Part shown: positions 15,179 through 32,678 of the stretch, piece after piece
How the letters are laid out: each line of letters starts with the position of its first letter
How positions within the stretch are numbered: the first letter of the stretch is position 1
The notes under the pieces: model-generated
What the model was told of the DNA's origin: nothing
Database searches by the model: none
Seen by the model: only the letters and a program-made list of their open reading frames with translations
NCBI GenBank assembly: GCA_016186625.1
Contig: JACPLG010000016.1
Coordinates: 1-38,649, forward strand
Direction of reading: 5' to 3'
DNA: 38,649 bases
DNA from: Candidatus Levyibacteriota bacterium
GTDB lineage: Bacteria > Patescibacteriota > Microgenomatia > Levybacterales > UBA12049
Program-made: the position numbers and the translations under genes

Positions 15179-15182
15179 TTGT

Positions 15183-16577: not shown

Positions 16578-16620
16578 GCTTATGAAAGCCTTAAATGCTA
16601 TAATACGCAAATTAAATAAT

Positions 16621-17859
16621 ATGTTAAAAAAATTAATCTTATTAATAATTCTTATTGCATCTATTCTGGTATTATCTTTTGTCTTTAAAAAAGAATCTCA
16701 GCTGGTACCTGCCGCTCCGTGGTGGGAGTTTGCCTCAATTGATACCATGAAATACTCAAGGGACATTGCGCGGGAAAAGCTAAATGATTCCTCGTTTAAT
16801 GAGGTAATTGATAGACAAGTCAGGGATATTGCCGGGACTGGCGCAACACACGTTGCTATTGCAACTCCATATGATAGTGAGTTCTACCCTTTTCTTAAAA
16901 AATGGGTGGATGCGGCAAGGAAGCACAATCTAAATATCTGGTTTCGCGGTAATTTCTCCGGATGGGAAGGCTGGTTTGGTTATCCGGATATTTCACGGGA
17001 TGAGCATATTAAAAAAACCGAGGAATTTATCCTAAAAAACAAAAATCTTTTTAAAGACGGGGATGTTTTTACCGCCTGTCCGGAGTGCGAGAACGGAGGA
17101 CCTGGCGATCCAAGGCATAATGGCGATGTTGAAGGACACAGGGAGTTTCTGATTGATGAATACAAAATCACCAAGGCTGCCTTTAAAAAAATGGGAAAAA
17201 ATGTTGCCTCCAACTTTAATTCTATGAATGGGGATGTTGCAAGAATTATTATGAATAAAGAGACTACGCGCTCTCTTGACGGGATTGTAACAATAGACCA
17301 CTATGTCTCAACTCCTGAGAAATTAATAGAAGATGTAAGAAGGATAAGTAGAGCCTCCGGCGGAAAAATTGTTTTGGGTGAGTTTGGGGTACCAATTCCA
17401 GATATTCACGGAAAAATGAGCGAAGAAGAACAAGCAGAGTGGGTTGAAAATGCATTAGGAGAACTAAGAAAGATGCCGGAGGTTGTAGGTATAAATTACT
17501 GGACAAATACCGGAAGCACAACCCAGCTTTGGGATAACAAAGGAGTCCCAAGACTTTCCCAATCCATTCTTACTTCATTTTACAAAGCCCATATAGTTAA
17601 GGTTAGGATCATGGATGAAACAGGATCTATCTTAAGAAACGCAGAGTTGAGTATGGATGGAGCAAGACTTGAAAAGGATGATAATGGCACATTTAACATC
17701 CCTTATTTTGAAGACTCAGATATTATTAGTATAACAGCAGATGGATATTTTCCAAAAGAAGTAAAACTTTCAAAGACAAGTGAACAAGAGGCAGTTCTAA
17801 TTAAGAAAGACCAGGATATCATTTACCAAATACGCAGATTCTCCAAAAATTTGCTTTAA
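16621..17859 (+). CDS. Membrane-anchored TIM-barrel glycoside-hydrolase-like protein
   Basis: N-terminal TM; PECENG and LGEFG resemble the GH-A acid/base and nucleophile glutamates; C-terminal beta-rich domain. Confidence 0.55.
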   Translation: MLKKLILLIILIASILVLSFVFKKESQLVPAAPWWEFASIDTMKYSRDIAREKLNDSSFNEVIDRQVRDIAGTGATHVAIATPYDSEFYPFLKKWVDAARKHNLNIWFRGNFSGWEGWFGYPDISRDEHIKKTEEFILKNKNLFKDGDVFTACPECENGGPGDPRHNGDVEGHREFLIDEYKITKAAFKKMGKNVASNFNSMNGDVARIIMNKETTRSLDGIVTIDHYVSTPEKLIEDVRRISRASGGKIVLGEFGVPIPDIHGKMSEEEQAEWVENALGELRKMPEVVGINYWTNTGSTTQLWDNKGVPRLSQSILTSFYKAHIVKVRIMDETGSILRNAELSMDGARLEKDDNGTFNIPYFEDSDIISITADGYFPKEVKLSKTSEQEAVLIKKDQDIIYQIRRFSKNLL

Positions 17860-17898
17860 GCTCCAACTTTGTTCAATTTAGCGCTATAGGATAGACTA

Positions 17899-17926
17899 TT
17901 GACTTTTATAACAATTATGATATAAT
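17899..17926 (+). promoter_or_regulatory. Sigma70-type promoter of substrate-sortase pair
   Basis: TTGACT-16-TATAAT with extended TG. Confidence 0.65.
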
Positions 17927-17970
17927 CCTATAATATTTTCACAGGCAGGGTTTGTGACTGAATTTAAATA

Positions 17971-18537
17971 ATGTATAAGCAAAAATTATCCATATTTACT
18001 GCGTCTATAGTAATATTTTTATCGGCTTTTGTCGGCTCTGCAAACGCAACCACAATTCCCACATTTCCGGTTTGTGCCAACCCACAGGGACAAATCACAT
18101 CTTCTTATGAGTCCGGAGTTCACGGAGTTCCCGGAGATACCAACACCTACACTGGCAAGGATACGGTTTATAGCTTAAGCGATACAACATCAACCCAGTG
18201 TCTTTGCACGGACAACGGAGCTGGAATACAAACCAACTGGTGGAAAGCCGGATCTTTGACTCAAGAAGAAATTGACGTATTAATAACTGAGGGCTGGATT
18301 CTTATCCCTGACGGAAGCTCTTGGGGGCTCTTGGAGGGTCCATATTTGGCTAAAAACTCAAGATATGAGTGTGCTGGAAGCGGTGGAACATCGACAAGTA
18401 CAGCCGGCGCAAGTACCACGCAGGCAATTCTTTCTCTTGCTTCAACAGGAAACCTTAAATTTATAGCATCAATTTTTTTGACAGGTTCTGCACTTCTTTT
18501 ATCAGGGGTAGCACTTTCTATTAAAAGGAGGGGTTAA
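17971..18537 (+). CDS. Secreted sortase substrate (LAxTG sorting signal)
   Basis: Signal peptide, Cys-containing core, Ser/Thr/Gly linker, LASTG, hydrophobic helix, KRR tail. Confidence 0.75.
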   Translation: MYKQKLSIFTASIVIFLSAFVGSANATTIPTFPVCANPQGQITSSYESGVHGVPGDTNTYTGKDTVYSLSDTTSTQCLCTDNGAGIQTNWWKAGSLTQEEIDVLITEGWILIPDGSSWGLLEGPYLAKNSRYECAGSGGTSTSTAGASTTQAILSLASTGNLKFIASIFLTGSALLLSGVALSIKRRG

Positions 18538-19109: not shown

Positions 19110-20099
19110 TTACCAGCGGTTGTGGACTTGAGGTTTCACCAGTTCCTCGTAAATTTTCTCTATTTTTTTATGAGTGGAAACGGATAACGGTTTAAGGCTT
19201 GATGCTTTGGCATTATCAATAACCTGCGAAGGCATCTTTCCTCCCGGAATTGTTGTGGAAACCTGCTTAAAATCAAGAATAAATCGCAGAGCAAACTCTG
19301 GCATGCTCATATATTCTGGCTTTATTTTTTCAAGCCTTTTTACAGCTTTTACTCCTGTTTTATAATCTACTCCTGCAAAAGTTTCTCCAACATCAAATGC
19401 CTCTCCATGTCTGTTGTAATTTCTATGATCTGTTTTAGGGAATTTCGATTCTAAATTATATTTACCTGTAAGGAGTCCGCTGGCCAAGGGGACACGAACT
19501 ATTATTCCAACATTCTTCTCTTTTGCTAATTTAAAGAAAAGTTCTTTGGGACGTTGCCTGAAGATGTTAAAAATTATCTGGACTGTTGCAACGCCTGGAT
19601 AATCTAGTGCTTTTATAGCTTGTTCGACTTTTTCAACACTTACTCCAAAGTGCCTTATTTTCCCTTTTTTCTTAAGTCTTTCAAGAGAATCGAACAGTTC
19701 CTGATTGTAATAAACATCATTTGGCGGACAATGAAGCTGAAGGAGATCCAAGGTATCTGCTCGTAAGTTTTTTAAACTCCTGTCAATAAACTTCTCAATG
19801 TTTTTCCCGTTATATCCCTCTGCCGTATGAGGGCTAAGTCTTCTTCCTGCTTTTGTTGCAACATATATCTTGCCCTTCCCTTTTCTTTCCTTAAGAAACT
19901 TTGCGATTAATTGTTCAGAATGACCATTCCCATAAACGTCTGCTGTATCTATAAAATTAACTCCCTGCTCAGCTGCCGCGTGGAGTGCTAGAAGCGCTTT
20001 TTTATCATCAACTCTCCCCCAGTCAGCACCAATCGCCCATGCGCCGAACCCGACTTCGCTTACTTTATATCCCGTCTTCCCAAGTGCTCTATATTTCAT
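19110..20099 (-). CDS. Aldo/keto reductase
   Basis: GFGAWAIG, FIDTADVYG, ATK, LDLLQLH, PLASGLLTGK. Confidence 0.93.
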   Translation of the reverse strand: MKYRALGKTGYKVSEVGFGAWAIGADWGRVDDKKALLALHAAAEQGVNFIDTADVYGNGHSEQLIAKFLKERKGKGKIYVATKAGRRLSPHTAEGYNGKNIEKFIDRSLKNLRADTLDLLQLHCPPNDVYYNQELFDSLERLKKKGKIRHFGVSVEKVEQAIKALDYPGVATVQIIFNIFRQRPKELFFKLAKEKNVGIIVRVPLASGLLTGKYNLESKFPKTDHRNYNRHGEAFDVGETFAGVDYKTGVKAVKRLEKIKPEYMSMPEFALRFILDFKQVSTTIPGGKMPSQVIDNAKASSLKPLSVSTHKKIEKIYEELVKPQVHNRW

Positions 20100-20162
20100 A
20101 AAGGCTATCAAATTAGTCTAATCGAAATATAGTTTATTTACCTTGGGAAGTCAAAGAGGTAA

Positions 20163-20185
20163 TTAGTTTTTTCGCCTCAAAAATG
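20163..20185 (-). repeat. Degenerate copy of ftsZ 3' end (att-like copy D)
   Basis: Minus strand ca ttt ttg agg cga aaa aac taa = FLRRKN*, versus native ca ttt ttg agg cag aag aat taa. Confidence 0.5.
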
Positions 20186-20282
20186 TTAGTTAGGTAATTG
20201 ATTAAAAAATAATTACTAATCTTAGTTTCTTTTTTTTATTCTTTTTTTATATATTCTTATATTTATATAGTTTTAGCCTAGG

Positions 20283-20310
20283 ACATTTTTCCGCTCGAGT
20301 TGAAATTTGT
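20283..20310. repeat. 28-bp imperfect palindrome, copy 1
   Basis: ACATTTTTCCGCTCGAGTTGAAATTTGT, identical to 20915-20942. Confidence 0.95.
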
Positions 20311-20311
20311 C

Positions 20312-20896
20312 CTAGATTCCGAAATATTTTTTATAAACATCTTCGTTTTCTATTTCTTTGACTTTGAGTAGTAGAACCTCGTTTCCCACATCAAACATCT
20401 CACGTAGATATTCTATCTCATTGTCACAAACAAAAGGTGTTAAATAAACACTCTCTTGTAGTCTTAAAAGCTGAAGTTTTTCCAACATATTTCTAAAATT
20501 ATCTCTTTGATATTTTTTAAGATTAGCAACGTCATAAATTATAACCCTCCATTTTCCATCAGTTTTTCTCTTAATCTCCATGCCTTCCAAATTATATTTT
20601 AAAATCTTTTGTCTTCCTTTTTTCGTAATTTTCACTTCTTCGCCAACAATTTCAACAACTTTCTGTGCTTGTAATCTTTTGATAAGTTTTCTTAAGTTAT
20701 AAATGTTATATTTTCCCCATTCTTTTTCATCTCTTTTTCTTTTTTCATTAAGTATGGGCTTTAAAATGATAGGCAATCCTGGCATAATTAGACTTCCTGC
20801 CAAAAATGCTCCCGCGCCTAAAAGAATTAGAACATCTTTTACTTTTGGATTAATTGGTTCTTTTTTCCTATTTCTCGAATCTTCTGTGGTAAGCAT
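20312..20896 (-). CDS. PaaX-like protein (winged helix + Cas2-like domain) of the CPR type
   Basis: ITKKG wing followed by DGKWRVIIYDV...R..FR..L..L....LQESVY; start moved to ATG 20896. Confidence 0.8.
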   Translation of the reverse strand: MLTTEDSRNRKKEPINPKVKDVLILLGAGAFLAGSLIMPGLPIILKPILNEKRKRDEKEWGKYNIYNLRKLIKRLQAQKVVEIVGEEVKITKKGRQKILKYNLEGMEIKRKTDGKWRVIIYDVANLKKYQRDNFRNMLEKLQLLRLQESVYLTPFVCDNEIEYLREMFDVGNEVLLLKVKEIENEDVYKKYFGI

Positions 20897-20914
20897 ACAT
20901 AAATATAGCTTAGC

Positions 20915-20942
20915 ACATTTTTCCGCTCGAGTTGAAATTTGT
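20915..20942. repeat. 28-bp imperfect palindrome, copy 2
   Basis: Identical direct repeat of 20283-20310, lying in the promoter region of the PaaX-like gene. Confidence 0.95.
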
Positions 20943-20980
20943 TCCAAGAAGTTAATAATGTTGGCTATGTTTGAAGTAAG

Positions 20981-21001
20981 GAGAATATAGACTTTTTAAG
21001 A
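20981..21001 (+). repeat. 21-bp direct repeat, copy 1
   Basis: GAGAATATAGACTTTTTAAGA, identical at 21513-21533; 12-nt partial copy at 22359-22370. Confidence 0.9.
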
Positions 21002-21054
21002 ATAAATATCAAGAGTCTTTACATAAGTAGGTAACAGGCATATAATGCCACATT

Positions 21055-21450
21055 ATGGAATCTGAGTTTTCAAGGTTAATGAGATACACAGAAGAACCCA
21101 GCGGAAATCCTACATACTCTTATGTCCAGACTGATGTTACGCTTCAAACAGTAAGCTCCCTTAAAGAGGAAGCTGTTAAATCAAGGGATACCGATGAGGC
21201 AGGAGATTTTCGTGTTACCCTTCTTGAAACTATGGCAGATGCGTTTCAGGCAGGTAAGCGTGTAAGATTTGTACCTGTAGTCTTAAAAGAGCAAGGAGTA
21301 ATGCCACTCGTTGTTATTTCAATAATGCCATTAAGAATTGGCGACAAACCAGAAGCAAGCCTCACAGTTATGGACACCGAAGCAATCAATTTACTTGAAG
21401 TAATTTTCCCTACATTTAATGGTCAAATAACAGAATCCGCTGCAAGATAA
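21055..21450 (+). CDS. Hypothetical protein (131 aa)
   Basis: ORF preceded by TTTACA-17-TATAAT (21018-21046), 8 nt before the ATG; no recognisable motif. Confidence 0.65.
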   Translation: MESEFSRLMRYTEEPSGNPTYSYVQTDVTLQTVSSLKEEAVKSRDTDEAGDFRVTLLETMADAFQAGKRVRFVPVVLKEQGVMPLVVISIMPLRIGDKPEASLTVMDTEAINLLEVIFPTFNGQITESAAR

Positions 21451-21512
21451 GAATACCAACTGATATTGGGTGGACATTTAAGAAGAGGTAATTGGTTAGT
21501 TTTTTCTCCAGC

Positions 21513-21533
21513 GAGAATATAGACTTTTTAAGA
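21513..21533 (+). repeat. 21-bp direct repeat, copy 2
   Basis: Identical to 20981-21001. Confidence 0.9.
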
Positions 21534-21553
21534 TTAGAGGTCAGGGGAAATTG

Positions 21554-21982
21554 CTAGCTATAAAATAATTTAACGTATCTCTTATTTTCATTAAATTCGA
21601 TTTTCTCAAATTTATCCATAAATCCAAACCTTCCTAAGAGCGGAATCGTATTCTCATATGCAAAATCTGCTTCTGTCGTTATTTTATATGAACCCACGAA
21701 AAATGTTATTTTATGGGTGTAAGTAGCGATTGGTACATTATCAATTCCCGCTGTTTTTCCTTCCTTTCCTTTTTTAACATTTAGTCCTAATGCCTCTCCC
21801 CAAACCCCTGGCAACAATATTCGATCAGCTCCGGTGTCAAAAAGACAATCTAGGGGGTTCATAACCTTTCTATTTTTTGTTAAAAACCTGATGGGAATTT
21901 TCGGGCGAAGTACTTCTACCTTCTCACCTGTCAAATAATCTGTTGCTACCTCAGGAACAAAATAAAATGTAATATCTTTCAT
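21554..21982 (-). CDS. Retropepsin-like aspartyl protease
   Basis: LFDTGAD catalytic motif and LLGR. Confidence 0.85.
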   Translation of the reverse strand: MKDITFYFVPEVATDYLTGEKVEVLRPKIPIRFLTKNRKVMNPLDCLFDTGADRILLPGVWGEALGLNVKKGKEGKTAGIDNVPIATYTHKITFFVGSYKITTEADFAYENTIPLLGRFGFMDKFEKIEFNENKRYVKLFYS

Positions 21983-22156
21983 TTACGGGGAAACAGTAAT
22001 ATCTGATCGGGGAATAAAAGAAACTATCAGCTCTTTATCTGTTTTGATTTTTTTCAATAAACCATCCAATGACTTAGACTTATTAACAATATGCTTCCTG
22101 TCTTTTGAATATGCAACCCACATATTTTCGTAACTAATGAGATCTTTTAGATTCAT
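21983..22156 (-). CDS. Small DUF5678-like protein paired with the protease
   Basis: Y.N.WVA....IV....L..L pattern; abuts the protease start; TATAAT 6 nt before the ATG. Confidence 0.6.
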   Translation of the reverse strand: MNLKDLISYENMWVAYSKDRKHIVNKSKSLDGLLKKIKTDKELIVSFIPRSDITVSP

Positions 22157-22249
22157 ATACATATTATACACATTACAATCAAGAATTAAAACAGATACTT
22201 CCTATGTAGAGTTTTATTAATTATAAATACTATCTTGAGAGTTGAAAGT

Positions 22250-22279
22250 CTAATTCTTCTGTCTCAGAAATGCGGGGAT
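22250..22279 (-). repeat. Copy of ftsZ 3' end (att copy C)
   Basis: atc ccc gca ttt ctg aga cag aag aat tag = IPAFLRQKN*, intergenic. Confidence 0.9.
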
Positions 22280-22434
22280 TCCTTAGTCAAGACTTAATTT
22301 TAGCTTCGATTCTCTACAAGCAACCTTAGTCTTAAGAAATCTTTTTTAAGTCTTGATTAGAATATAGACTGTTTGAGGAATAATTTCAAGTATTATCGAT
22401 ATAGGCTGTGTCGCTTTACGATATAATAACAGCT

Positions 22435-23094
22435 ATGAAAACAGTTCCTATTTGTATCTTTTGCGGAAGCCCAGCAGACACAAGAGAACATATTCCAGCA
22501 AAGCAGTTTTTCAAAGGAACTCCTGATATGAACCTTATTACTGTGCCATCGTGCAAAAATTGCAATAAAGGATTCCAAAAAGATGAAGATTTTTTCAGAC
22601 AATTCAATGCAGGCTTCTTAATGGACAGGTCGGAGAGGGCAAAGGAGTTAATGGAGAATCAGATTACAAGGTCAATTAAAAGAAAACCGGCGCTAGCTCA
22701 TCAAATGTTTAGTCAAATGCATTTAGTTGATGCTTATACCAAGTCTAAGAAAGTTTATATTGGTAAGGCAACGGCATATCATATTACTGCTTCTGACACA
22801 AAAAGAATTAATAGAATAGTCAGAAAGATTATAGAAGGTTTATTCTTCCACGAGTTTAAGCAGATTCTACCTAAAGATTGGGTCGTAAGAATTGTTTGGG
22901 TAAATCCCAAAGTAGAAAAAGAGCTTGGTTTAATTGAATTAGCTAAAACTTTAAAATGGAGAGTAATTAAAGAAGATACATTCGCATATGGAGTTGATTT
23001 TGTTCCGGAAACACATCAATCAATTTGGCTGATTGATTTTTTTAAGGTTTCACTTTTTTATCTGTTGGTGTTGGATAGAAAAACTGCTAAATAA
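22435..23094 (+). CDS. HNH endonuclease-domain protein
   Basis: CIFC...TREHIP...VPSCKNCN zinc-binding HNH motif at the N-terminus. Confidence 0.8.
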   Translation: MKTVPICIFCGSPADTREHIPAKQFFKGTPDMNLITVPSCKNCNKGFQKDEDFFRQFNAGFLMDRSERAKELMENQITRSIKRKPALAHQMFSQMHLVDAYTKSKKVYIGKATAYHITASDTKRINRIVRKIIEGLFFHEFKQILPKDWVVRIVWVNPKVEKELGLIELAKTLKWRVIKEDTFAYGVDFVPETHQSIWLIDFFKVSLFYLLVLDRKTAK

Positions 23095-23139
23095 TGTCGT
23101 AATTTAATCTGGAATGTTAATTTTTAAGAAGTCTAGCTA

Positions 23140-23826
23140 TCAATTGACTTCTATTCCTAAAGAACCGACATCTTTTATTAATTTTTGGGGAATTGGTGAC
23201 AAAGACCGTATTTCTTTTTCATACCCCCTTATTATTTCTTCGCCGTCTTTTAAAATCTGATCTAGAGATGGTATTGAACCAACTCCTAATCCAGCTTTTT
23301 CATAATCCGGTAATTTTTCTTTATCTTTCTTTTCATTTAATTCAAAATAAGTCTTAAAGTTATTTGAATTGAATAATCCCCAAACTAGACTTTCAAAGAA
23401 ATATACCTCTAAAGCCTCTCGCATCTCACTGCTTTTTAGGTCTTTTGAGCTTATCACATCTTTTTCCAAAGCTTTTAAATTTATCGGATCTATGTCTTTA
23501 GAAAATTTAGAAGGCTTAACAATATCTCTTGGGTTCTTATTGCCTCTCTCATTCCATAAAGGCTTTGAATCACTTACGACTTTAACTATATCGAATGATT
23601 CCTTGCTATCCCAATCGTTACCCCGAAACATAGTGGCGATTATTTCCAAAGCTAATTTAGGACGACAAGCACCAATACTTGCAGACCAATCAATCATTTG
23701 GTCAATAGTAGAATCTAAGACAAAGCTACTAACTACGGCCTCCGAATTAAGTAAGCCACGCCTTCTTGGCCAATTCATCTGGCGTAAAAGTCCCACAACA
23801 TAATAAAAACCAAAAATAGATGACAT
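23140..23826 (-). CDS. Hypothetical protein (228 aa)
   Basis: Long ORF in AT-rich DNA; no motif recognised. Confidence 0.65.
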   Translation of the reverse strand: MSSIFGFYYVVGLLRQMNWPRRRGLLNSEAVVSSFVLDSTIDQMIDWSASIGACRPKLALEIIATMFRGNDWDSKESFDIVKVVSDSKPLWNERGNKNPRDIVKPSKFSKDIDPINLKALEKDVISSKDLKSSEMREALEVYFFESLVWGLFNSNNFKTYFELNEKKDKEKLPDYEKAGLGVGSIPSLDQILKDGEEIIRGYEKEIRSLSPIPQKLIKDVGSLGIEVN

Positions 23827-23897
23827 AGTTAATTCGAATCTACAAAGTTTAAATTATTATACTTCAAAAAATACTAAAAACACCAGTAAGGGGATAA

Positions 23898-24374
23898 TTA
23901 TTTATCGCTTTCTAATTCTTCTATTCGCGACCTACTTAGCTTCCAAATCTTTTTATCTATCAGATAACCTGCTTCGGCCTGCGTTTGCTGATAATTTTTA
24001 AGTCCAGAGATAATGGCATCTATTATTTCCTTATTACCGAAACGAACGAGGAAATCTCTAGTTGCTTCTTCGTCATTTGTATAAGAAATAAGTTCCATCT
24101 CTGTCCCTTCTAGAAGTTTAACTTTATCATGCATCTCTTGTTCATAATAATAGGCCTCCATTTTATTAAGCGCTCCTTGAATTATGGCAATTGGATATGG
24201 CAATAATGATTCAGGTATATCTATACCAAAAAGAATCCTAACTCCACCGAAATATTCAAGATGAGCACCCCAAACTTGAACGATATTTTTAGCTTCTTCT
24301 AGGGTTAGTTTTTCGGATATATGTTTTGAACGCAAACTATCCAGCTTTTCTGCCCTTTTCATCAAATCACTCAT
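23898..24374 (-). CDS. Hypothetical protein (158 aa)
   Basis: ORF with upstream GAGG; no motif recognised. Confidence 0.65.
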   Translation of the reverse strand: MSDLMKRAEKLDSLRSKHISEKLTLEEAKNIVQVWGAHLEYFGGVRILFGIDIPESLLPYPIAIIQGALNKMEAYYYEQEMHDKVKLLEGTEMELISYTNDEEATRDFLVRFGNKEIIDAIISGLKNYQQTQAEAGYLIDKKIWKLSRSRIEELESDK

Positions 24375-24517
24375 ATCCCTCTTATATCGTATTTAATATT
24401 CAAAGTCAAAGCGATTACTATGTCGCACAATAGTAATATTGCGACGCGGTTTTGAGGCTGATTTATAATTCCCCCCTAGAGCTTTGAGGCTATGTTGAAA
24501 ACTATAAGATTTCATAA

Positions 24518-25141
24518 TTAGTTCTTTTTCTCAGCTTTTTCCCAAAACCATTTCCTACCCTTTACCCTTGAATCAAAGATATGTTGGCCGTCCCATTTAG
24601 CGTATATTGTTATCTCCAAAGAGTCTCCACTTTCCTGAAAGATTTTTAAATTTATTTTAGAATCGCCTTCCTCTAAAAAACAGAAGTCTTTAATCTCTTG
24701 GGCATAGCGTGAACCAAATCTCAAGAAAAATTGAAGATTTGTTATGTCTTTTCCCCTGTTTATGTGTTCGAAAAGATCCAAATACACCGTTTGATTAGGA
24801 AGTATTTCTCTACTTTCTGTATCAAGATGTGTCCAGCGTAAAGGAATAGGAAGAAAGTTTTTTCTAACCTTATTTCCATCATCAAACACTTCTACAATAT
24901 CTACTTGGACTTTCTTTGCTGTATCATTCCCGGAGTTCTTTATTACCAATCTCCATAAATCAAGAGATGGATTCTGGTTATTCTGTATAAGATCAACTAT
25001 TTCAATTTTAGGCTTATACCCAAGTCGCTTAAGTCCTCTCCCCCAAATAGCGATAACCAGTGCGGTCAGCGAAGCAATAATTGTGCCAATTAAAGCTCCG
25101 TATCTTACAAGAAAATCTGTAATGTTGGAAACAATATCCAT
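24518..25141 (-). CDS. Hypothetical protein with N-terminal TM helix
   Basis: Hydrophobic GALIGTIIASLTALVIAIW; TGcTATAAT 8 nt before the ATG. Confidence 0.7.
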   Translation of the reverse strand: MDIVSNITDFLVRYGALIGTIIASLTALVIAIWGRGLKRLGYKPKIEIVDLIQNNQNPSLDLWRLVIKNSGNDTAKKVQVDIVEVFDDGNKVRKNFLPIPLRWTHLDTESREILPNQTVYLDLFEHINRGKDITNLQFFLRFGSRYAQEIKDFCFLEEGDSKINLKIFQESGDSLEITIYAKWDGQHIFDSRVKGRKWFWEKAEKKN

Positions 25142-25332
25142 ATCTTACAATTATAGCAAAGGAGGATTCCAAAATTTACACGGTGGGGACTAGCACTTCT
25201 AATTGTGTAAAACACACAGGAGGTATTAGTGATTGCCCGCATATACCTTTGTGAATATATTACTGAAACACAACTGCAATGTTAGTCCAATGTAAATGCA
25301 ATAAGTAAAACGCAACTTAAATACAAGTTAAA

Positions 25333-25370
25333 CATAACTATAGCATAACTATAATATGACTATAATATGA
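25333..25370 (+). repeat. 11-bp tandem repeat (about 3.5 copies)
   Basis: cataactatag cataactataa tatgactataa tatga. Confidence 0.7.
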
Positions 25371-25421
25371 ATTTTTTAATAAAAGGGGGTATTCCTTATA
25401 CATATTAAATTAAAATTTCAA

Positions 25422-25961
25422 TTAAAGTGCGTGTTCTTTGTCTAGGAGAAATCTCTTATAAACTTCATTGAGGTCTTTCACTTTATCCGGATCAAAGTAT
25501 TCTTTTGAGTTAAAACCTATTAAGCAGGTTTTACCATCTGGATTGTCCCCTACCCAAGCATAAAAGATTCTATCCGGTTTATCCTGAAATATAATTTGAA
25601 TATCTTTTCCGTTTTCTTGATTATCGTCAATAGTGGCAACTATAAACTTGCTTTTATAATAATCTCTGCTAAATGCATCAAGACCAGTTATTATCCCTTC
25701 TCTGCGATCTTCTTTAACAGCTCCTTGTAAGATACAAACTTGTGAACCGTCATTCGCTAGATAAGCATTAAAAGCTTTTCGAAGAAAAATAACAGAAGGG
25801 TTTTTATAAACTTGATAATATCCTTCAAGTTCTTTCTGATTGACAGAAACTTCTTGAGTTGTCTGTGGACTTGATTTACTTATTTGGGAGTATCCAATTG
25901 CAACAGCAACGATAATTAAAATAGCAATAAGTGGTAAATACGATTTATGAAATAGCTTCAT
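25422..25961 (-). CDS. Hypothetical exported/membrane-anchored protein
   Basis: Start moved to ATG 25961 to remove overlap; N-terminal TM. Confidence 0.7.
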   Translation of the reverse strand: MKLFHKSYLPLIAILIIVAVAIGYSQISKSSPQTTQEVSVNQKELEGYYQVYKNPSVIFLRKAFNAYLANDGSQVCILQGAVKEDRREGIITGLDAFSRDYYKSKFIVATIDDNQENGKDIQIIFQDKPDRIFYAWVGDNPDGKTCLIGFNSKEYFDPDKVKDLNEVYKRFLLDKEHAL

Positions 25962-25962
25962 T

Positions 25963-26298
25963 TCAATCTTTATTTTTTTGTATTTTGGGAAATAAAAATC
26001 TATAAAGCCCGAATCCAACCATATAGACAGTCAATACTATGATAGCAATTCTTGGTGATTCTTCTTCTATTTTACGCCAAAATAGCCACTTCTGCTTCTC
26101 TTTCTCATAGCAAGATACATATTGGTAATTATTCAAATCTTTTGATTTGCAATATTCTATTTTACTCGCATAGTTATCAAATACCGGTGATGAATATAAT
26201 TTCGAAATTAAGACTATCAAGGCAACAATAATGCTAGACGAAATTGCAATTACCTGAATCAGTTTTAGAAATCTCTCTCTACTAAAAGTCCTGTTCAT
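25963..26298 (-). CDS. Small two-TM membrane protein
   Basis: Two hydrophobic helices flanking a loop with two Cys. Confidence 0.65.
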   Translation of the reverse strand: MNRTFSRERFLKLIQVIAISSSIIVALIVLISKLYSSPVFDNYASKIEYCKSKDLNNYQYVSCYEKEKQKWLFWRKIEEESPRIAIIVLTVYMVGFGLYRFLFPKIQKNKD

Positions 26299-26413
26299 AG
26301 TTCTAGTTGAATCTTACCTGTCAGTTAATATAAAAGTCAATAGTTTTTAGCCTTTAAATCTTTCCTTCTGCGTTATGTTTTAAGACCATCTCTTTTGTTA
26401 AGGTTGAAGCAAT

Positions 26414-26638
26414 ATGGCAGAAGTAAGAATAACCCAAAAAGATATACAGCTTGGAAAAAGAATAAGACGATTCAGAAAAAAGGTAGATTTAACACAAGAA
26501 GAACTAGCAGAGAAAGTCCGGGTAAGCACAACACACATTGGTCTGGTAGAAACAGGAAAGAGAAGATTAAGCCTAAAGACGCTTCAAAAAATTGCTTCAG
26601 CACTTGGCGTAAAAGTTAAAGATTTACTCCCCTTTTAA
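26414..26638 (+). CDS. XRE/Cro-CI family HTH regulator
   Basis: LGKRIRRFRK...LTQEELAEKV.VS..HI..VE.G...L..IA.ALGV. Confidence 0.9.
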   Translation: MAEVRITQKDIQLGKRIRRFRKKVDLTQEELAEKVRVSTTHIGLVETGKRRLSLKTLQKIASALGVKVKDLLPF

Positions 26639-26674
26639 AAGTCGCGATCTTTTTCAGAATGTTATAATCACTTT

Positions 26675-27334
26675 GTGACGAAGAAGGGCTTTCAAACTGA
26701 ATTTAAAAATGTTCTTCTAGTTATTGAAAGAGAAGATGTAAAAAAGGCTGTAAAAGGATTGAGGATAAAATGGAAAATTCCAGATAATGGCTTCACAGAT
26801 ATTGATGACTACAATAAATGGATCAATGATTTAACAGAACAATTATTATCCAACTCCGAAAACGGTAGTCCTTCACGATATTCTCTTTTTCTTGATGACA
26901 TTAACACATTGTGTAGGAATCTAAAGATTCCCTCCTATTGGAAAGTTTTTCTAAGAACATATATTCCTACAGGCAAGGTTAAAGAAAAATTAGTCTTAAG
27001 AGTAAAGAGTCTCAATGCTCCTTCCATAAACATTGTCTTGAAAGGTAAAGAAGAAAAGATAAGATTAGAGTTTGGAGCGAATACGAAACTTGCAGACATT
27101 AAAACAATTTGGGGTAAGGTAAAAGAACATCAGAAAATATTACCAGATTATGACACTTCAAGAAAAAGACGAAGGCTTGTAAGGGATATAGAAATCTTCA
27201 AAAAATCACAAGCAGGGAAGAAACCAAAGGAAATCTACGAGGATTTACCTCCTGAAACTCCGGATGATGATTTAAGCCTACAGGCATTAAATAAAGCTTC
27301 TCAAAGAATGAAAAAAATTATAAAAGGACAATAA
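26675..27334 (+). CDS. Hypothetical basic protein, possible C-terminal HTH
   Basis: GTG start 6 nt after TGtTATAAT; C-terminal RD.EI......GK...EI pattern. Confidence 0.6.
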   Translation: MTKKGFQTEFKNVLLVIEREDVKKAVKGLRIKWKIPDNGFTDIDDYNKWINDLTEQLLSNSENGSPSRYSLFLDDINTLCRNLKIPSYWKVFLRTYIPTGKVKEKLVLRVKSLNAPSINIVLKGKEEKIRLEFGANTKLADIKTIWGKVKEHQKILPDYDTSRKRRRLVRDIEIFKKSQAGKKPKEIYEDLPPETPDDDLSLQALNKASQRMKKIIKGQ

Positions 27335-27388
27335 TACTTCACCCCCTAATGTCCTGAACCTTACTTAATCTCTTGCTATTCTAATGCT

Positions 27389-27489
27389 GATCCCTGAGGA
27401 GGGCTCGCAAATAAAGCGAGGGAGTCAAGTGGTTTGACTTGAAACCAGTCTCCTACGAAAGCCCTTCTTCCGTGGAGGCTGGTTTTTCT
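27389..27489 (+). ncRNA. Putative structured leader/attenuator RNA
   Basis: Four consecutive hairpins after TGcTATTCT; the last is a 12-bp stem followed by T residues. Confidence 0.45.
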
Positions 27490-27497
27490 ATTAAAGA

Positions 27498-27866
27498 ATG
27501 GAACATATAGAAAAGACAATAAAAGAAAAAAAGATTAACAGTTCTCCGGCTAACAGTAGAAATAAATATCTAAATACTGTTAACAGTAATAACGGTAGAG
27601 TTTTCCCTTATGCAGACGGAGAAGATTCAACTTCTGAAGGTTTAGCCGTTAAATTAGCTGAAGATTTAGATGATATGAAAAGTCTAAGGTATTACCAGAT
27701 TCTTGCCAAAGAAACTAATCATCAAATTCTCCTAGATACACTTTCTTATACGCTTGAAACAGATCGATTAGGAAAAATTAAAACGACAAAAGCAAGGTAT
27801 TTTATGTTTCTTTTAAAGGTAAGAGGAATCAGAACCAAATTCAAAAAAGAACAAAATGAAAAGTAG
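27498..27866 (+). CDS. Hypothetical protein, possibly replication-initiator-related
   Basis: Asn/Ser-rich N-terminus encoded by TAACAGT repeats; helical C-terminal domain. Confidence 0.55.
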   Translation: MEHIEKTIKEKKINSSPANSRNKYLNTVNSNNGRVFPYADGEDSTSEGLAVKLAEDLDDMKSLRYYQILAKETNHQILLDTLSYTLETDRLGKIKTTKARYFMFLLKVRGIRTKFKKEQNEK

Positions 27867-28032
27867 AAAAAGCGACAAAAATTTATCAAAACAGATCCGT
27901 ATTGATGGCGGACTGCATAGATTACTCAAAATCAAGGCAAGTGAAGATTCTACAAGCATTAGAAGCCTTCTGGAGGCATTTATCGTGGAGATTCTAAAAG
28001 ACAAAACTGCCGGAAAAGAAATTGATTCTTGA
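27856..28032 (+). CDS. Ribbon-helix-helix DNA-binding protein (58 aa, absent from ORF track)
   Basis: MKSRKSDKNLSKQIRIDGGLHRLLKIKASEDSTSIRSLLEAFIVEILKDKTAGKEIDS*; overlaps the upstream stop. Confidence 0.7.
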   Translation: MKSRKSDKNLSKQIRIDGGLHRLLKIKASEDSTSIRSLLEAFIVEILKDKTAGKEIDS

Positions 28033-28115
28033 TTTTTTGCAATATGTTAAATAAGATAAATAATAGTTTCCTACAATATCCCCTATCAACCTCAAGCCAC
28101 TCCCGAAAAGGGAGT

Positions 28116-29126
28116 ATGTTAATAGACAAAAAAGATTTCTATTCATTTCTATCGGTTAAACAAGGATTATCTCAAAGCAGTATCAGGCATTGTATTATTC
28201 GTTTGAAAAAAATAAATGAGTGGTTCTCTGATAAAGACTTGACAAAAAAATCGATAGAAGATTTCTTTATGGAACTTAAGTTAAAAGGATTAAAAAATAA
28301 TTCACTTAATACCTACCGTTTTGTATTTATTCAGTTAAAAGAATACTTTAAAGACAGAGGTCTTTCGTTTGACTTTTTTGATGGATTCAAGTCTTTTAAG
28401 AAAACCAAATCACAAATAATCATTCTTACACAAGAAGAAATAGAAAAGATTTTAAATACCCCCTTATCTTACGGAAAACTATACGGGAAAGATTGTTCTT
28501 TTTTAGATTTCAGATATAGAACTCTAACAATGTTTCTTGCCTATACGGGGAGCAGATTTTCAGAAGCTACTAATTTAAAAATAAAATTTTTGGATTTAAG
28601 CGCAGGAAGAGCAACTTTCGTTGATACCAAAACTAATGAAAATAGAAGTGTTTTCTTCGCTGAACCTCTTAAAAGCAGATTAAAAGAGTTAAGTATAAAT
28701 AGGAATGAAAATGATTTTGTTTTTAGAAATTCTCAAGAAAAACAAGTGAATGCTCCGGATTTTAGTGAAGATTTAAAAAAACGGGCAAAAACTGCCGGAA
28801 TTACAAAAAGAATATATCCTCATATCTTCAGACACAGTTATATTACCCATCTTCTTGAGTCAGGAGTCCCGATTACAGAAGTAGCTAGTCTTGTTGGACA
28901 TAAAGACATACAAACAACTTATGGAAATTATATGCACTTAGCTGATAAAACTTTACAAAAAGCGGCAATGCGACACCCACTTGTAAGAAAAAATGTAAAT
29001 CCTTTAGAAATAATTAAAACAATAAAGGAAACGATAGAGAATCTTCACTTAGAAAATGATCCAAGATTTAAATATCAATTATCAGAAGGGGGTGATAAAT
29101 TAAAGTTTGAAATTTCTACTCTTTAA
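28116..29126 (+). CDS. Tyrosine recombinase/integrase
   Basis: TGSRFSE (R), KT (K), HIFRH (HxxR), LVGH (H), TTYGNY (Y); SAM-like N-terminal domain; GGGAG just before ATG 28116. Confidence 0.93.
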   Translation: MLIDKKDFYSFLSVKQGLSQSSIRHCIIRLKKINEWFSDKDLTKKSIEDFFMELKLKGLKNNSLNTYRFVFIQLKEYFKDRGLSFDFFDGFKSFKKTKSQIIILTQEEIEKILNTPLSYGKLYGKDCSFLDFRYRTLTMFLAYTGSRFSEATNLKIKFLDLSAGRATFVDTKTNENRSVFFAEPLKSRLKELSINRNENDFVFRNSQEKQVNAPDFSEDLKKRAKTAGITKRIYPHIFRHSYITHLLESGVPITEVASLVGHKDIQTTYGNYMHLADKTLQKAAMRHPLVRKNVNPLEIIKTIKETIENLHLENDPRFKYQLSEGGDKLKFEISTL

Positions 29127-29236
29127 ACTCGTGATTTCATCTGTGAGGGTTTAGATTCCTCCAAGCCCTCACTATCAAACCACAAGCCACTTCCCTATTG
29201 TTTCCTACAGTTCCGTTAGTTATGATTTGGAAGACA

Positions 29237-29264
29237 ATAAAAAAGCACCTAAGTTAAGGTGCTT
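29237..29264 (-). terminator. Intrinsic terminator downstream of att copy B
   Basis: Minus strand aagcacct-taactt-aggtgctt followed by a T-run. Confidence 0.7.
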
Positions 29265-29283
29265 GTAGAGGTTCTCTTAGTAG

Positions 29284-29316
29284 TTAGTTCTTCTGTCTTA
29301 GGAATGCGGGGATGTC
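29284..29316 (-). repeat. Copy of ftsZ 3' end (att copy B)
   Basis: gac atc ccc gca ttc cta aga cag aag aac taa = [10 protein letters not shown]; 5 differences from native, all synonymous. Confidence 0.93.
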
Positions 29317-29359
29317 TATGCCAAAGACTGTTCTTAGCTTCAAACAACACTAAAAACAC

Positions 29360-29746
29360 CTAGGCATTCTTCATTGAATGCTTTTTTAACCATTTGGAAA
29401 TCTCTTCAATTTCTGGCTGCGAATTTTCTATATATAATGCATATTCTACTACTTCTTTTTGATCTGCAATAAATTTATAGCCATTAAGTTCCAAAAATGT
29501 CATCATGGAAAACATTGCAGTTCTTTTATTCCCGTCAACAAATTGATGATTCATAAGAAGTGAATGCACTAAGGAAGCTGCCTTGTCAAAAATGGAAGGA
29601 TAAAGATCAATACCGCTAAAAGTGGCTTGCGGACGCATAACAGCAGATTCAAGCAGCCCCAAGTCACGAAGACCGTGAGATCCGCCAAATTTGTCTATTG
29701 CAAGCTCGTGAAGAAGAAGGACGTCTTGCACCGTCAAGTATTTCAT
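29360..29746 (-). CDS. doc: Doc-type (Fic/Doc family) toxin
   Basis: GLRDLGLLESAVMRP and HQFVDGNKRTA; 128 aa. Confidence 0.9.
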   Translation of the reverse strand: MKYLTVQDVLLLHELAIDKFGGSHGLRDLGLLESAVMRPQATFSGIDLYPSIFDKAASLVHSLLMNHQFVDGNKRTAMFSMMTFLELNGYKFIADQKEVVEYALYIENSQPEIEEISKWLKKHSMKNA

Positions 29747-29758
29747 TATTTTTAGGAA

Positions 29759-30001
29759 TTATTTTTTAGCGAGTTCTGCAAAAGCCTTGCTGTATCTTTT
29801 TAATAAGCTTTTGGCAACAGCATAAACTTCAGGATCGATCGCGGAATCTACAACTTCTTGAGGATTAAAATCAATTATCAATCGCTTTTTTGAAGCTTCA
29901 TATTGAACTTTTGCAATATCCACATCTCCCACCTGTTTTAAAATATCTTTTGAGATGGTGAGTGCTTTTGAATTTCCAACAGTAATTAATTTTTGCATCA
30001 T
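29759..30001 (-). CDS. AbrB/MazE-like antitoxin
   Basis: KLITVGNSKALTI swapped-hairpin motif; C-terminal RY..AF.ELAK; directly upstream of the toxin. Confidence 0.8.
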   Translation of the reverse strand: MMQKLITVGNSKALTISKDILKQVGDVDIAKVQYEASKKRLIIDFNPQEVVDSAIDPEVYAVAKSLLKRYSKAFAELAKK

Positions 30002-30039
30002 GTTATAACCATGTTATAATAATTTGTGGTATTTGTCAA
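30002..30039 (-). promoter_or_regulatory. TA promoter with paired palindromic operators
   Basis: TTGACA-17-TAACAT; GTTATAAC (30002-30009) and GTTATAAT (30013-30020). Confidence 0.6.
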
Positions 30040-30045
30040 GAGAAT

Positions 30046-31215
30046 TTAATTCTTCTGCCTCAAAAATGCGGGGATGTCCCAGACTTCTTCATCATTTTCA
30101 TCAGGCGTCGGAGCCTGGGTTGTGGGAGCCTGGGTTGGCGTCTGATTATCCTGGTCCTGGGCAGGAGGTTCTTGCGGATTTTGGCCCGCTTGCTGGCCAA
30201 AGCTGGTTGAAGCCTGGTATTGCTGCTCCGCAGGTGTTACGAATTCGCGAAGTGTTTGGCGGGTTGAGTCAAACCCTGTCGCAATAACAATAATTTTCAT
30301 CTGATCTCTCATAGTCTCATCAATTATTGCTCCAAAAATTATATTCGCATCAGAATCTGCGGCCTGGGCAATAATTTTGGCTGCCTCATCAACCTCGCTC
30401 ATCGTGAGATCCGGGCCTCCTATGACGTTAAACAAAACGCTCCTTGCTCCTTCCATAGTAATTTCAAGAAGAGGTGAGGCTATTGCTGAACGAGCCGCAG
30501 CCTGCGCTCTATTTTCCCCAACGCCTGTTCCTATCCCCATAAGGCTGGTTCCTGCGTTTTGCATAATTGTTCTCACATCCGCAAAATCTACATTAATTAG
30601 TCCCGGCATAGTTATAAGATCCGATATTCCTTGGACTCCCTGGGTAAGAACAGAATCAGCGACTTTGAATGCTTCAAGAAGTGATAATTTCTTATCAACT
30701 ACGTCCAAAATTCTTTGATTTGGTATAACAACAAGAGTATCGACTTTGTCTTTTAGCTGTTCTATTCCCTCTTCCGCTGTTACCATCCTCCTCGTCCCTT
30801 CAAACGTAAAAGGTTTGGTAACAACCGCAACTGTTAATGCTCCTATTTCTTTTGCCGCCCGGGCAATGACCGGAGTTGACCCCGTTCCTGTCCCTCCTCC
30901 CATTCCGGCTGTTAAGAAAACCATGTCAGTCCCATCCAGAATATCTTTTAATTTTTCGTATGACTCTTCCGCGGCCTGAATTCCAATCTCTGGATTACCT
31001 CCCGAGCCTAGACCCTTGGTAAGCTCCTCACCGATTTGAACTTTAGTTGCTGCCTGATTTAAAAGAAGAGACTGTGCGTCAGTATTAACCGCTATAAAAT
31101 CCACTCCCTGAATGGATGACTGCGCGATCATGGAGTTGAGGGCATTACTTCCTCCACCGCCTACACCCATTACTCTAATCTTTGCAAAATTAGTTGTTTG
31201 AGGCTTAATGAGCAT
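30046..31215 (-). CDS. ftsZ: Cell division protein FtsZ
   Basis: [30 protein letters not shown]-terminal DIPAFLR; true start ATG 31215 (389 aa). Confidence 0.98.
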
Positions 31216-31267
31216 AGCCCAAGAATCGTAACAGAAGTTTACAAAAATATCAAATAGTAAAAACTGA

Positions 31268-31387
31268 TCAGAACACTCAGAAAACTCAGATGGCCAGAAG
31301 GTCGGAAGATCGGAAAGCCAGAGTTCCGGAATACCGAGGTCTGATTGTCGGAATCTCTGGTTCACCGAGTATTCCGAGTTTTCTGAA
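31268..31387. repeat. 120-bp periodic palindromic intergenic element, copy 1
   Basis: TCNGA-type cores every 8-9 nt; inverted homolog at 34154-34274. Confidence 0.85.
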
Positions 31388-31388: not shown

Positions 31389-32678
31389 CTAGGGAATGAA
31401 GGATTTTATGAGATCAATTATTTTCTTAGGAAGTTTGCCAAGTCTTAAGGCGGGAATTGCGGGAATCGGCATTTTAAAACTCCCCGTGGATTCTACTCCT
31501 ATCATTGCACCGTAAATTGCAAGTCCCACAACATTAGCAAAAGGAGTGTCTTGAATTTCATCAATTATTCCTTTTATATTCTGCGGCTGTCCAATTCTAA
31601 CCGGCATGGCAAGCATTCTTTTTGCACACTCAGTTGCTCCTATGGTCAGGGCACCTCCTCCTGTTATTACCAAGCCTGACGGAGTCTGTCCGCCAAATCC
31701 TGACTTTTTAACTTCAAGCCCCACCATTGTGAATATTTCGTTTAGCCTTGGGCGAATAATACCATCCACTAATGTTTTTTGGGAAACTTTAGTAAGTTGC
31801 TCTGGAAGCCCCAGGGTTGCCAAATCAACTTCATCACTTGGACGTCTTTCTTTTGGCTCTCCCTCGGCCTCGTCAAATTTAACAATCTTTTTCGCAGGTC
31901 TTGAGAGAAAAAGCTTTACCTTCTCAGCCGATTCTAAGGAAATCCGAAGCCCTATTGCCAGATCATTTGTAATGTGGCGCGCTCCAATTGGAAGAACCGA
32001 TGAAAAGGCAACAGAACCTTCAATATAAATAGAAATATCAGTTGTGCCTGCTCCAATATCAACAAGAATGACTCCTAGTTCTTTTTCCGTGTCCGAAAGA
32101 GCGGAAAGGCTGCTAGCGTAACCTGAAAACACCAGTCCTTCAACGTCAACTCCAACTTGGGAAAAAGCTTTTTCAAGATTTCTAATAGTTGGGCTTCCGG
32201 CTGATACAATGTGAGTTTCAACTTCAAGCCTTGTCCCGCTCATTCCCACAGGGTCTTTTATCCCTTCCTGCCCGTCAACGGTATAGCTTCGGGGAAGGAC
32301 GTGAATAATCTCTCGTGTTGAGGGGAGAGAAACAGCCTTGGCTGCGTCAATGACCCTGGCAACGTCCCCCGGAGTTATCTCACCTTCAGGATGCGCTATT
32401 GCCACAACTCCGTGCGAATTTTGGGATTCAATACTGCTACCTCCAACTGAGGCAATAACACGCGACACTGAGACTCCTGCCATACGCTCAGCCGCCTCAA
32501 TTGAATTGTTTATGGCAACAACCGCCTCTTCAATATTTACAATCTGTCCCTTTTTAATTCCGGCGGAGTCTACTTCTGAAACGCCGAGCACGTTAACCAC
32601 CTCATCTACTTTTGTAATTACGCTGACTATTTTTGAAGTTCCTATATCTACGCCTACAACAATTTTTCCTTCATTCAT
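31389..32678 (-). CDS. ftsA: Cell division protein FtsA
   Basis: VDIGTSK, DIGAGTT, ITGGGA; directly upstream of ftsZ. Confidence 0.97.

Follow-up and report, generated by a model that had tools for sequence, protein, structure and literature searches.

Probable Site-Specific Integration at the 3' End of ftsZ by a Tyrosine Integrase Clade of a Patescibacterial Order

Introduction

That mobile elements integrate at the 3' end of conserved genes and restore the gene end with their own DNA is textbook biology. Well-known cases are the accretion arrays at the 3' end of fda, represented by ICESt1 and ICESt3 of Streptococcus thermophilus, and the tandem copies of SGI1 at the 3' end of trmE. The C-terminal peptide of FtsZ is the short stretch through which this protein binds FtsA, and the present study deals with a locus at which the codons of this peptide, referred to here as the ftsZ tail, recur downstream of ftsZ. 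The locus lies in a stretch of 38,649 nucleotides (nt) from a Candidatus Levyibacteriota bacterium (assembly GCA_016186625.1, contig JACPLG010000016.1, positions 1 to 38,649), which is referred to as the window. We consider it very probable, judging from the comparison with related genomes, that the ftsZ tail is a site of site-specific integration for a group of related tyrosine integrases within a single order of the Patescibacteria.

The locus shares with the fda and trmE arrays a target at the 3' end of a housekeeping gene, a tandem arrangement with internal attachment (att) sites, and att-bounded segments that lack an integrase. In contrast, the elements at fda and trmE are conjugative or mobilizable, occur in Firmicutes and Proteobacteria and have known transfer functions, whereas no transfer genes were recognized here; the target gene and the integrase clade differ as well.

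A clade of integrases dedicated to a single protein-coding gene has been described for dusA (PMC4482086). The dusA integrases resemble those of this study in forming a distinct clade that uses a single site in one conserved gene in many genomes, in leaving the target intact and in being carried by prophages or islands. The two cases differ in that integration into dusA concerns the 5' end, whereas here it concerns the 3' end of the essential gene ftsZ, at the codons of a partner-binding peptide, and in that the hosts are Patescibacteria with genomes of about 1 Mb, in which the arrays contain many cassettes without an integrase. Another close parallel is provided by the tycheposons of Prochlorococcus, which are tyrosine-recombinase elements of streamlined genomes (bioRxiv 10.1101/2020.12.28.424599). 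In tycheposons, successive integrations at one site displace the older elements inward, earlier events can be recognized from degenerate elements and partial target copies, and some members are cargo carriers and others phage-satellite-like, all of which has its counterpart at ftsZ. Tycheposons use tRNA genes, whereas the elements studied here use a coding tail that is kept in frame by synonymous changes, and the mobility of tycheposons was shown by polymerase chain reaction, whereas the ftsZ elements are known from sequence alone and no replication or packaging module was found in them.

Integrons, too, combine small cassettes that follow one another in a single orientation with a recurring recombination site and a tyrosine recombinase. 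The assignment to this class was rejected, since the recurring site is a coding tail and not a folded attC, the integrase gene is found inside the second segment and not at the head of the array, and the first cassette, behind tail copy A, is not promoterless, having its own promoter-like site at 30039-30011. A reading as an Xer/dif system was also rejected.

The proposed mechanism is the ordinary one of elements that target 3' ends, and what sets the case apart is the nature of the site and the host group. An initial annotation of the window, made from its sequence and termed here the original prediction, had remarked that ftsZ is not known as a described integration target; no report of ftsZ as an attachment site was found by full-text literature searches, with supplementary target tables such as those of TIGER/Islander outside the scope of the search. 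Elements of this kind would depend on, and have to rebuild exactly, one of the most constrained stretches of the cell. Their hosts are groundwater Patescibacteria, a group with almost no mobile-element biology or genetic tools, and an integrase with a defined site of about 30 bp across an order is a candidate tool for site-specific insertion. In addition, the locus appears to be the main hotspot of flexible genes downstream of the division cluster in these genomes of about 1 Mb.

Results and Discussion

The ftsZ Tail Is Repeated in the Window

The final 10 to 11 codons of ftsZ are present three times on the minus strand of the window, all in the same orientation (copies A, B and C; coordinates in Table 1). 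Copies A and B share an identical 10-amino-acid translation and have 5 base differences, all of them synonymous. Copy C encodes IPAFLRQKN and a stop without the Asp codon, and its 3 base differences from copy A are synonymous or change one stop codon into another. The sequence ATCCCCGCATT is common to the three copies. Both this core and the recurrence of the ftsZ end with synonymous changes had been noted in the original prediction, and they were confirmed by translation of the minus strand, by a genome-wide pattern search and by a weight matrix. A degenerate codon pattern for the peptide matched exactly copies A, B and C, on one strand, in the whole genome of 921,936 bases, in which the reversed pattern used as a control had 0 matches, and a six-frame scan revealed no further full tail copy in the window. 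The matrix, which covers 30 nt and was built from 31 tails, gave 46.8, 49.6 and 48.2 bits for copies A, B and C, as compared to a maximum of 3.7 bits on the opposite strand of 21 sequences (280,926 positions). Stop codons lie 12 codons upstream of copy B and 2 codons upstream of copy C, and these copies are therefore not the ends of other genes or open reading frames (ORFs). Phase variation of the FtsZ tail was ruled out, since all copies encode the same peptide.

The claim of a decayed fourth copy was borne out in part. Copy D (FLRRKN*) has kept only the 3' part of the tail, and its score is a weak 4.2 bits with the full matrix. Its strand is the expected one and its distance beyond copy C is 2 kb, and its 18.7 bits on the 3' 22 nt are the highest value other than those of copies A, B and C on both strands of the genome (the runner-up has 16.0 bits). 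Copy D is a probable, though not certain, decayed ftsZ tail. Another possible remnant, D', which was spotted by eye and falls below the matrix threshold, resembles copy D and is followed by the same 9 nt; its assignment as a further decayed tail is tentative.

The copies divide the region into segments. The A-to-B segment of 762 bp has no integrase gene and consists of a promoter-like site, an ORF of 80 amino acids and a gene for a Doc toxin, so that it is annotated as a Phd/Doc-type toxin-antitoxin cassette in which the toxin is assigned by PF02661 and the antitoxin is putative. The B-to-C segment has 7,034 bp and contains a terminator, the integrase gene, a gene for an Arc-like protein, a helix-turn-helix (HTH) gene and about 8 ORFs without a family, whereas the C-to-D segment measures about 2.1 kb. 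The intrinsic terminator behind copy B and the tyrosine integrase gene beside it are both present as predicted. The count of at least three stacked segments was also right and may even be too low, given two further possible boundaries at 23862-23884 and at about 21491-21510. The window contains at least three tails in the same orientation, an integrase-less A-to-B segment that keeps an element-type end, and a 7,034-bp element flanked by copies B and C, while copy A keeps the peptide seen in relatives with a single copy. The G+C content of the island is 31-35%, versus 37-45% in the flanks, which was counted in favor of insertion. No tRNA or tmRNA gene was detected in the window.

Elements Bounded by ftsZ Tails in Related Genomes

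The ftsZ loci of 20 relatives were fetched for a comparison of synteny. Gene order through ftsA-ftsZ is conserved in all 20 loci, and the ftsZ stop codon is precisely the point at which this conservation is lost. Complete elements with a tail on either side were identified in the genomes G008 (5.6 kb), G058 (8.8 kb), G130 (14.3 kb), G144 (6.6 kb) and G075 (7.8 kb) and in the records L104 (6.2 kb) and L183 (5.9 kb). The genus of the window has a conserved right flank, namely, hflX followed by a beta-CASP RNase gene. In G008, the 5.6-kb integrase element is located between ftsZ and a distal tail that ends 33 nt before hflX. This element is missing from G006, whose HflX is 93% identical, and from G005. 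Both genomes retain what is left of a tail at the corresponding position before hflX, with scores of 23.6 bits in G006 and 13.7 bits in G005 against a null maximum of 10.3 bits. The comparison of these three genomes points to ftsZ, 33 nt and hflX as the ancestral order, with an insertion there now in every genome examined. A search for hflX in the genome of the window gave no match at E <= 1e-8, and no homologue of the aldo/keto reductase or sortase genes of the window was found near ftsZ in the 20 loci.

The repetition of the tail is not restricted to the window, as the original prediction had suspected. The tail pattern was found in 105 of the 245 genomes searched from the order of the window, and 17 of these 105 have two or more copies, while the reversed pattern had 0 matches in all 245 genomes. 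Among a set of 61 relatives, 34 were pattern positive, 9 of them with two or three copies. With the matrix, partial copies were detected downstream on the ftsZ strand in G005, G011 (five in all), G013, G015 and G039. Each ftsZ-fused tail examined retains the peptide. Within the Candidate Phyla Radiation, for which the original prediction had proposed a search, the site appears to be specific to this one order, and the exact pattern occurred in just 1 of 398 sampled genomes of the phylum outside it; the ending of FtsZ differs there, so that this figure does not show other orders to be without the phenomenon.

Tail copies that share a contig are on the same strand everywhere except in G109. In this genome (L098 2233-2262), a tail lies opposite to ftsZ, 1.4 kb beyond it, and its arm is near-identical to that of window copy C and has the same in-frame stop. 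The reversed tail may be the result of an inversion between two tails.

An Integrase Clade Linked to the Tail

The integrase of the window matches PF00589 with 116.6 bits (cut-off, 27.1) over profile positions 3-170 of 172. The residues R176, K201, H265, R268, H291 and Y301 are invariant in an alignment of three members that are 37-43% identical, and are presumably catalytic according to the motif of the family (Arg, Lys, His-x-x-Arg, His/Trp, Tyr). For the N-terminal SAM-like core-binding domain, PF02899 gave 21.5 bits, just below the cut-off of 22.3.

A profile constructed from three integrases matched 29 of the 245 genomes of the order at E <= 1e-30. In 23 of the 25 loci with E <= 1e-64, a tail is located 97-290 nt from the integrase gene, the other two loci ending at contig ends, and 14 of these 23 tails are fused to a recognizable ftsZ. 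Degraded integrase genes abut ftsZ in both cases found (2/2), whereas none of the three distant matches of the order (27-33% identity) has a tail. A scan of one genome per species, with records that overlap those of the order search, gave the same picture. Clear differences also emerge from environmental sequences: a tail is present at all 3 clade members (43-74% identity) and at 0 of 77 distant recombinases in 80 loci from metagenome contigs, and at the only clade member (1/1) and 0 of 18 others in 19 loci from viral contigs. The integrase of the window belongs to a clade that is tied to the ftsZ tail, and the search for integrase homologues next to ftsZ, a check proposed in the original prediction, thus had a positive outcome.

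The similarity between the integrases departs from the relatedness of the hosts. In G008, which is of the same genus, the integrase is 38% and FtsZ 86% identical to those of the window, while other genera reach 63-71% for the integrase and 66-78% for FtsZ (64-71% and 74-78% in G024, G104, G107 and G148). We counted this as an indication of horizontal movement.

Proposed Mechanism and Its Assessment

According to the mechanism that we favor, the roughly 30 bases that encode IPAFLRQKN and the stop would be the chromosomal attachment site (attB) of the integrase clade, and each element would carry a sequence resembling it. A recombination event within or close to ATCCCCGCATT would join ftsZ to the synonymous tail of the element, usually together with a terminator, and would push the prior tail to the far end of the element. 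Repeated integration at the regenerated site would then give rise to an array, which in the orientation of ftsZ would read ftsZ with copy A, Phd/Doc-type cassette, copy B, integrase element, copy C, one or two old cassettes, copy D and the aldo/keto reductase gene. We propose that the order along the array reflects age, the C-to-D segments being the older cassettes. We infer that the integrase catalyzes the exchange and, likewise, where the crossover is located. Cassettes without an integrase would either be mobilized by an integrase from elsewhere or be the remains of larger elements. The original prediction had already suggested a family of elements that use the peptide codons as attB and supply a recoded tail, and the data from the other genomes support this idea.

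A number of observations weigh against this mechanism. Integration activity was deduced from contigs and sequence, among which neither a recombination event nor a circular form or junction read was found. The empty site that had been anticipated, with ftsZ beside the aldo/keto reductase gene, is found in 0 of the 20 loci of relatives, which offer in its place the presence or absence of the G008 element, with the hflX flank and a tail scar; a truly empty site was not found among the relatives either. The integrase gene occurs in three layouts with respect to the tail, namely, convergent with ftsZ, immediately after ftsZ in the same direction, or next to the distal tail on the far side, and the layout of attP is consequently not uniform. 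What the copies within a genome always have in common is roughly the codons for Ile, Pro and Ala, yet a block that is identical in every attL/attR pair was not found, and the comparison did not map the crossover. Copy D is weak. Related genomes are not independent counts, all of them are metagenome assemblies, and repeats break contigs. Finally, the junction at copy A is bridged, among the pieces listed, only by a variant contig with 8 mismatches.

This last point also bears on the idea that the array is an assembly artefact, in which reads of related strains were joined at the conserved tail into a chimera that exists in no cell. It was addressed with Logan contigs (and contigs only) of four public runs from one study, three of which are possibly the source of the window DNA. 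Apart from the lack of a perfect bridge at copy A among the pieces listed, several alternative continuations at the ftsZ tail in this metagenome agree with an artefact, namely, loose ends at 30046 and joints with short sides. The sides of these joints (22276-29366, 22276-30045 and 20948-30044) measure 19-28 letters, and since related organisms may be their source, they were not counted as evidence; this includes the deletion-like joint 22276-29366, which has a depth of 13-25 in two of the four runs and a 25-letter side. However, independent contigs of single runs cover copy C, the entire 7-kb element and copy B with 0-2 mismatches (20382-29474 and 21776-29655), the same architectures recur in 17 genomes or more, in part on long contigs of 200-785 kb (those of G008, G058, G055, G001 and G007), and the three copies differ from each other, so that they do not represent one collapsed repeat. 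An artefact is barely credible in view of these data, as the original prediction had argued from the differences between the copies.

Element Ends, Core and Crossover

Upstream of the distal tails there is a conserved arm, about 50 nt long, in which the motifs GGTGTTTTTAGT and TGAAGCTA occur, and many arms also carry a look-alike of the VWD codons. The arm is present in both families of the order, in segments with and without an integrase; the motifs in the arm of window copy B are common to element ends of G008, G011 and L060. In the integrase elements of G008, G050, G058 and L053-L056, the tail nearest to ftsZ has a hairpin behind it that resembles the terminator of the window. Cassettes of the Doc type start directly after the tail in 6 genomes, with a conserved promoter and a palindrome, and Doc homologues directly after ftsZ tails were noted in G039, G005, G011, G012, G109, G167, G010 and G077. 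In the G039 cassette, the gene at the antitoxin position is MazE-like (E 9.6e-8).

Regarding the core, a test of the association between tail positions and flanks had only 13 informative (downstream-only) pairs and did not locate the crossover. The pair G011/G012, in which the last 21 nt of the tail and homologous cassettes are common and the first 9 nt differ, is suggestive as to the position of the crossover. The Pro codon of the tail is CCC in 40 of 46 ftsZ-fused tails, as compared to 18% of 270 Pro codons in genes of the window, and this preference is also visible in codon-neutral pattern matches of the order-wide scan. The bias fits a constraint at the DNA level or homogenization at the core. 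The tails of G130 (L093/L102) differ from the others in that both are followed by about 155 nt that are 97% identical, giving a repeat of about 185 nt, far longer than elsewhere.

The absence of an identical core across all pairs would be understandable if the tails were mainly homology anchors, with cassettes moving by homologous recombination after DNA uptake or by deletion within larger elements and the integrase acting on no more than a minority of them; segments without an integrase would then not be site-specific mobile units. In line with this, most segments between tails have no integrase (A-B and C-D in the window, and others in G001, G007, G039, G050 and G192), and the G130 repeat continues past the stop codon for 155 nt at 97% identity, beyond what a core site needs. 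Nevertheless, the integrase-less segments keep the same element-type arm of about 50 nt as the integrase-bearing ones, the start of the Phd/Doc-type cassette is only a few bases away from the stop codon in 6 genomes, and homology anchors leave the strict linkage between integrase and tail unexplained. A stretch of 30 nt with several mismatches is, moreover, a poor substrate for RecA-type recombination. Homology anchoring as the main process is very improbable, and site-specific integration remains the preferred explanation for the arms and tails.

The arms raise another question, which is whether the distal copies are kept as expressed mini-genes. Arm and tail together would encode a free peptide of 19-20 amino acids that could compete for FtsA, and the repeats would be functional genes instead of scars of integration, although the notion is compatible with integration. 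An in-frame ATG or TTG is situated precisely 10 codons before the tail in about 10 of the 46 distal copies, resulting in (M/L)KLxxxxx(W)D followed by IPAFLRQKN, and the median open stretch upstream of distal tails is 11 codons in frame versus 6 and 6 in the other frames. Several arms also have a promoter-like TTGAnn-17-TATATT upstream, and the integrase elements have a terminator behind the tail. On the other hand, 11 of the 46 distal copies, among them window copy C and the G109 arm, have a stop 0-3 codons from the tail that interrupts the frame, others such as L060 and G192 have no start codon, and the distance of 13 nt between the AGGTG motif and the start codon is large for a ribosome-binding site. 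We regard maintenance as mini-genes as decidedly improbable. Arms with a start codon of this type were seen in the window (29317-29345) and in L035, L048, L041, L084 and L020.

A more far-reaching scenario is that the ftsZ tail acts as a platform for cassette capture, in which cassettes without an integrase (toxin-antitoxin pairs and others), each with its complete element-type arm, are moved in and out by the integrases of neighbors or phages and the peptide of arm and tail interferes with the interaction of FtsA and FtsZ and with division. This scenario is speculative and rather unlikely.

A Prophage Probably at the Same Site

A viral record of IMG/VR (L183/L204, 34.7 kb) contains the 5.9-kb clade element with a tail at each end. 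A second integrase, 28% identical to that of the window, is found 275 nt from the proximal tail on its ftsZ side, and the genes that follow it in this prophage region (L183 6000-15600) have PHROG matches to Dit (distal tail), minor tail and tail-fiber proteins. The same phage was identified in G141 on two contigs (C44 and C37; L206-L208). One contig starts with ftsZ and its tail, which are separated by 6.3 kb from the phage genes in collinear order. At the end of the other contig are the phage integrase, a tail and a clade element, and the join between the contigs is unassembled. From this arrangement, it is probable that a tailed prophage uses the ftsZ tail as attachment site, which, if true, would provide a direct link between phage and host for this group of Patescibacteria. 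No free viral genome with a tail was found: of two scans of viral contigs, one gave 0 matches and the other 2, both in the integrated record that contains the clade member.

Further Features of the Array and Its Surroundings

The features of the array are compiled in Table 1.

Table 1. Coordinates of the array and adjacent genes in the window
Feature	Position	Strand	Remarks
ftsA	31389-32678	-	Precedes ftsZ
ftsZ	30046..31215	-	389 amino acids from the ATG at 31215; target gene; end of the division gene cluster; 62-87% identical to FtsZ of 20 relatives
Tail copy A	30046..30078	-	Fused to ftsZ; would be attL of the first cassette in the model
Promoter-like TTGACA-17-TAACAT	30039-30011	-	Starts 7 nt past the ftsZ stop codon
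Putative antitoxin, 80 amino acids	29759..30001	-	No Pfam match; 84% identity with the gene that precedes doc in G005
Doc-type toxin (Fic/DOC family)	29360..29746	-	PF02661, E 2.8e-19
Tail copy B	29284..29316	-	Junction of Phd/Doc cassette and integrase element; element-type arm upstream at 29317-29364
Intrinsic terminator	29243..29264	-	Behind copy B; 8-bp stem and T run; supplied by the integrase element
Tyrosine integrase	28029..29126	+	PF00589, E 1.4e-33; convergent with ftsZ; 3' end 157 nt from copy B
Arc-like ribbon-helix-helix protein, 58 amino acids	27856..28032	+	Just upstream of the integrase gene; phrog_582, E 2e-4 (weak)
Element module	26414..27866	+	Cro/CI-type HTH 26414-26638 (HTH_3, E 3.1e-16); ORFs 26675-27334 and 27498-27866 without function
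Cargo	22280..26298		Several predicted membrane proteins; weak HNH-like ORF 22408-23094
Tail copy C	22250..22279	-	Distal end of the integrase element; arm 22280-22389 with promoter-like TTGAAA-17-TATATT
Older cassette	21554..22171	-	DUF5678 21983-22171 (E 9.2e-5) and retropepsin-like 21554-21982 (E 1.3e-3); weak Pfam matches
Possible decayed tail D'	21491..21510	-	Like copy D; tentative
Oldest segment	20312..21450		ORF of 131 amino acids 21055-21450 (+); PaaX_M/Cas2-like 20312-20947 (-), PF20803, E 4.5e-13
Tail copy D	20163..20185	-	FLRRKN*; proposed original ftsZ end; followed by promoter-like site 20154-20126
Aldo/keto reductase gene	19110-20111		After copy D and the promoter-like site

Several genes of the integrase element have counterparts at other ftsZ tails. 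Homologues of the 58-amino-acid Arc-like protein, a candidate regulator or directionality factor, adjoin the integrase gene in G008, G090, G107, G091, L053, L060 and L183, and homologues of the HTH protein and of a protein of 122 amino acids occur in other ftsZ-tail elements. For the latter protein, an Atlas match to RepA_C (score 0.78) is a weak lead only. The cargo between 22280 and 26298 gave nothing beyond weak matches in Pfam, PHROG and PADLOC, and most of it was still unnamed after the Atlas search; its ORF of 158 amino acids at 23898-24374 has a counterpart in the G075 element with 65% identity. The cargo segment may be composite, since it has an internal motif resembling an element arm at 23862-23884. 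In the older cassette, the retropepsin-like protein has a homologue that is located after the ftsZ tail in G177.

The PaaX_M/Cas2-like gene of the oldest segment is bracketed by a direct repeat of 47 nt with 87% identity (20264-20310 and 20896-20942), and contigs from the same samples join a short match to this repeat sequence with the ftsZ tail, with short sides. Another repeat, of 31 nt, is found three times on the minus strand (22389-22361, 21544-21516 and 21012-20984) and contains a promoter-like TTGAnn-17-TATATT in the direction of ftsZ. It is also present in element arms of G011, G013 and L060 and could drive genes downstream of an insertion.

The ftsZ frame is open for 50 codons upstream of the conserved ATG, up to a GTG at 31365 (31216-31365), and the relatives align only from 31215; this extension is probably not translated. 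Directly behind ftsZ, G017 has a pair of genes for an HTH_17 and a PIN-domain protein (L051 2583-3265), and in G055 an OLD-family nuclease (AAA_15 and TOPRIM; L040 7334-9013) is encoded beside a distal tail, 20 kb from ftsZ. The part of the window from 1 to 18537 contains a run of plus-strand genes that faces the array and encodes a large protein of 1,401-1,449 amino acids, about 12 ORFs and a sortase. A homologue of the large protein is encoded 3.8 kb behind ftsZ in G001, in the opposite orientation.

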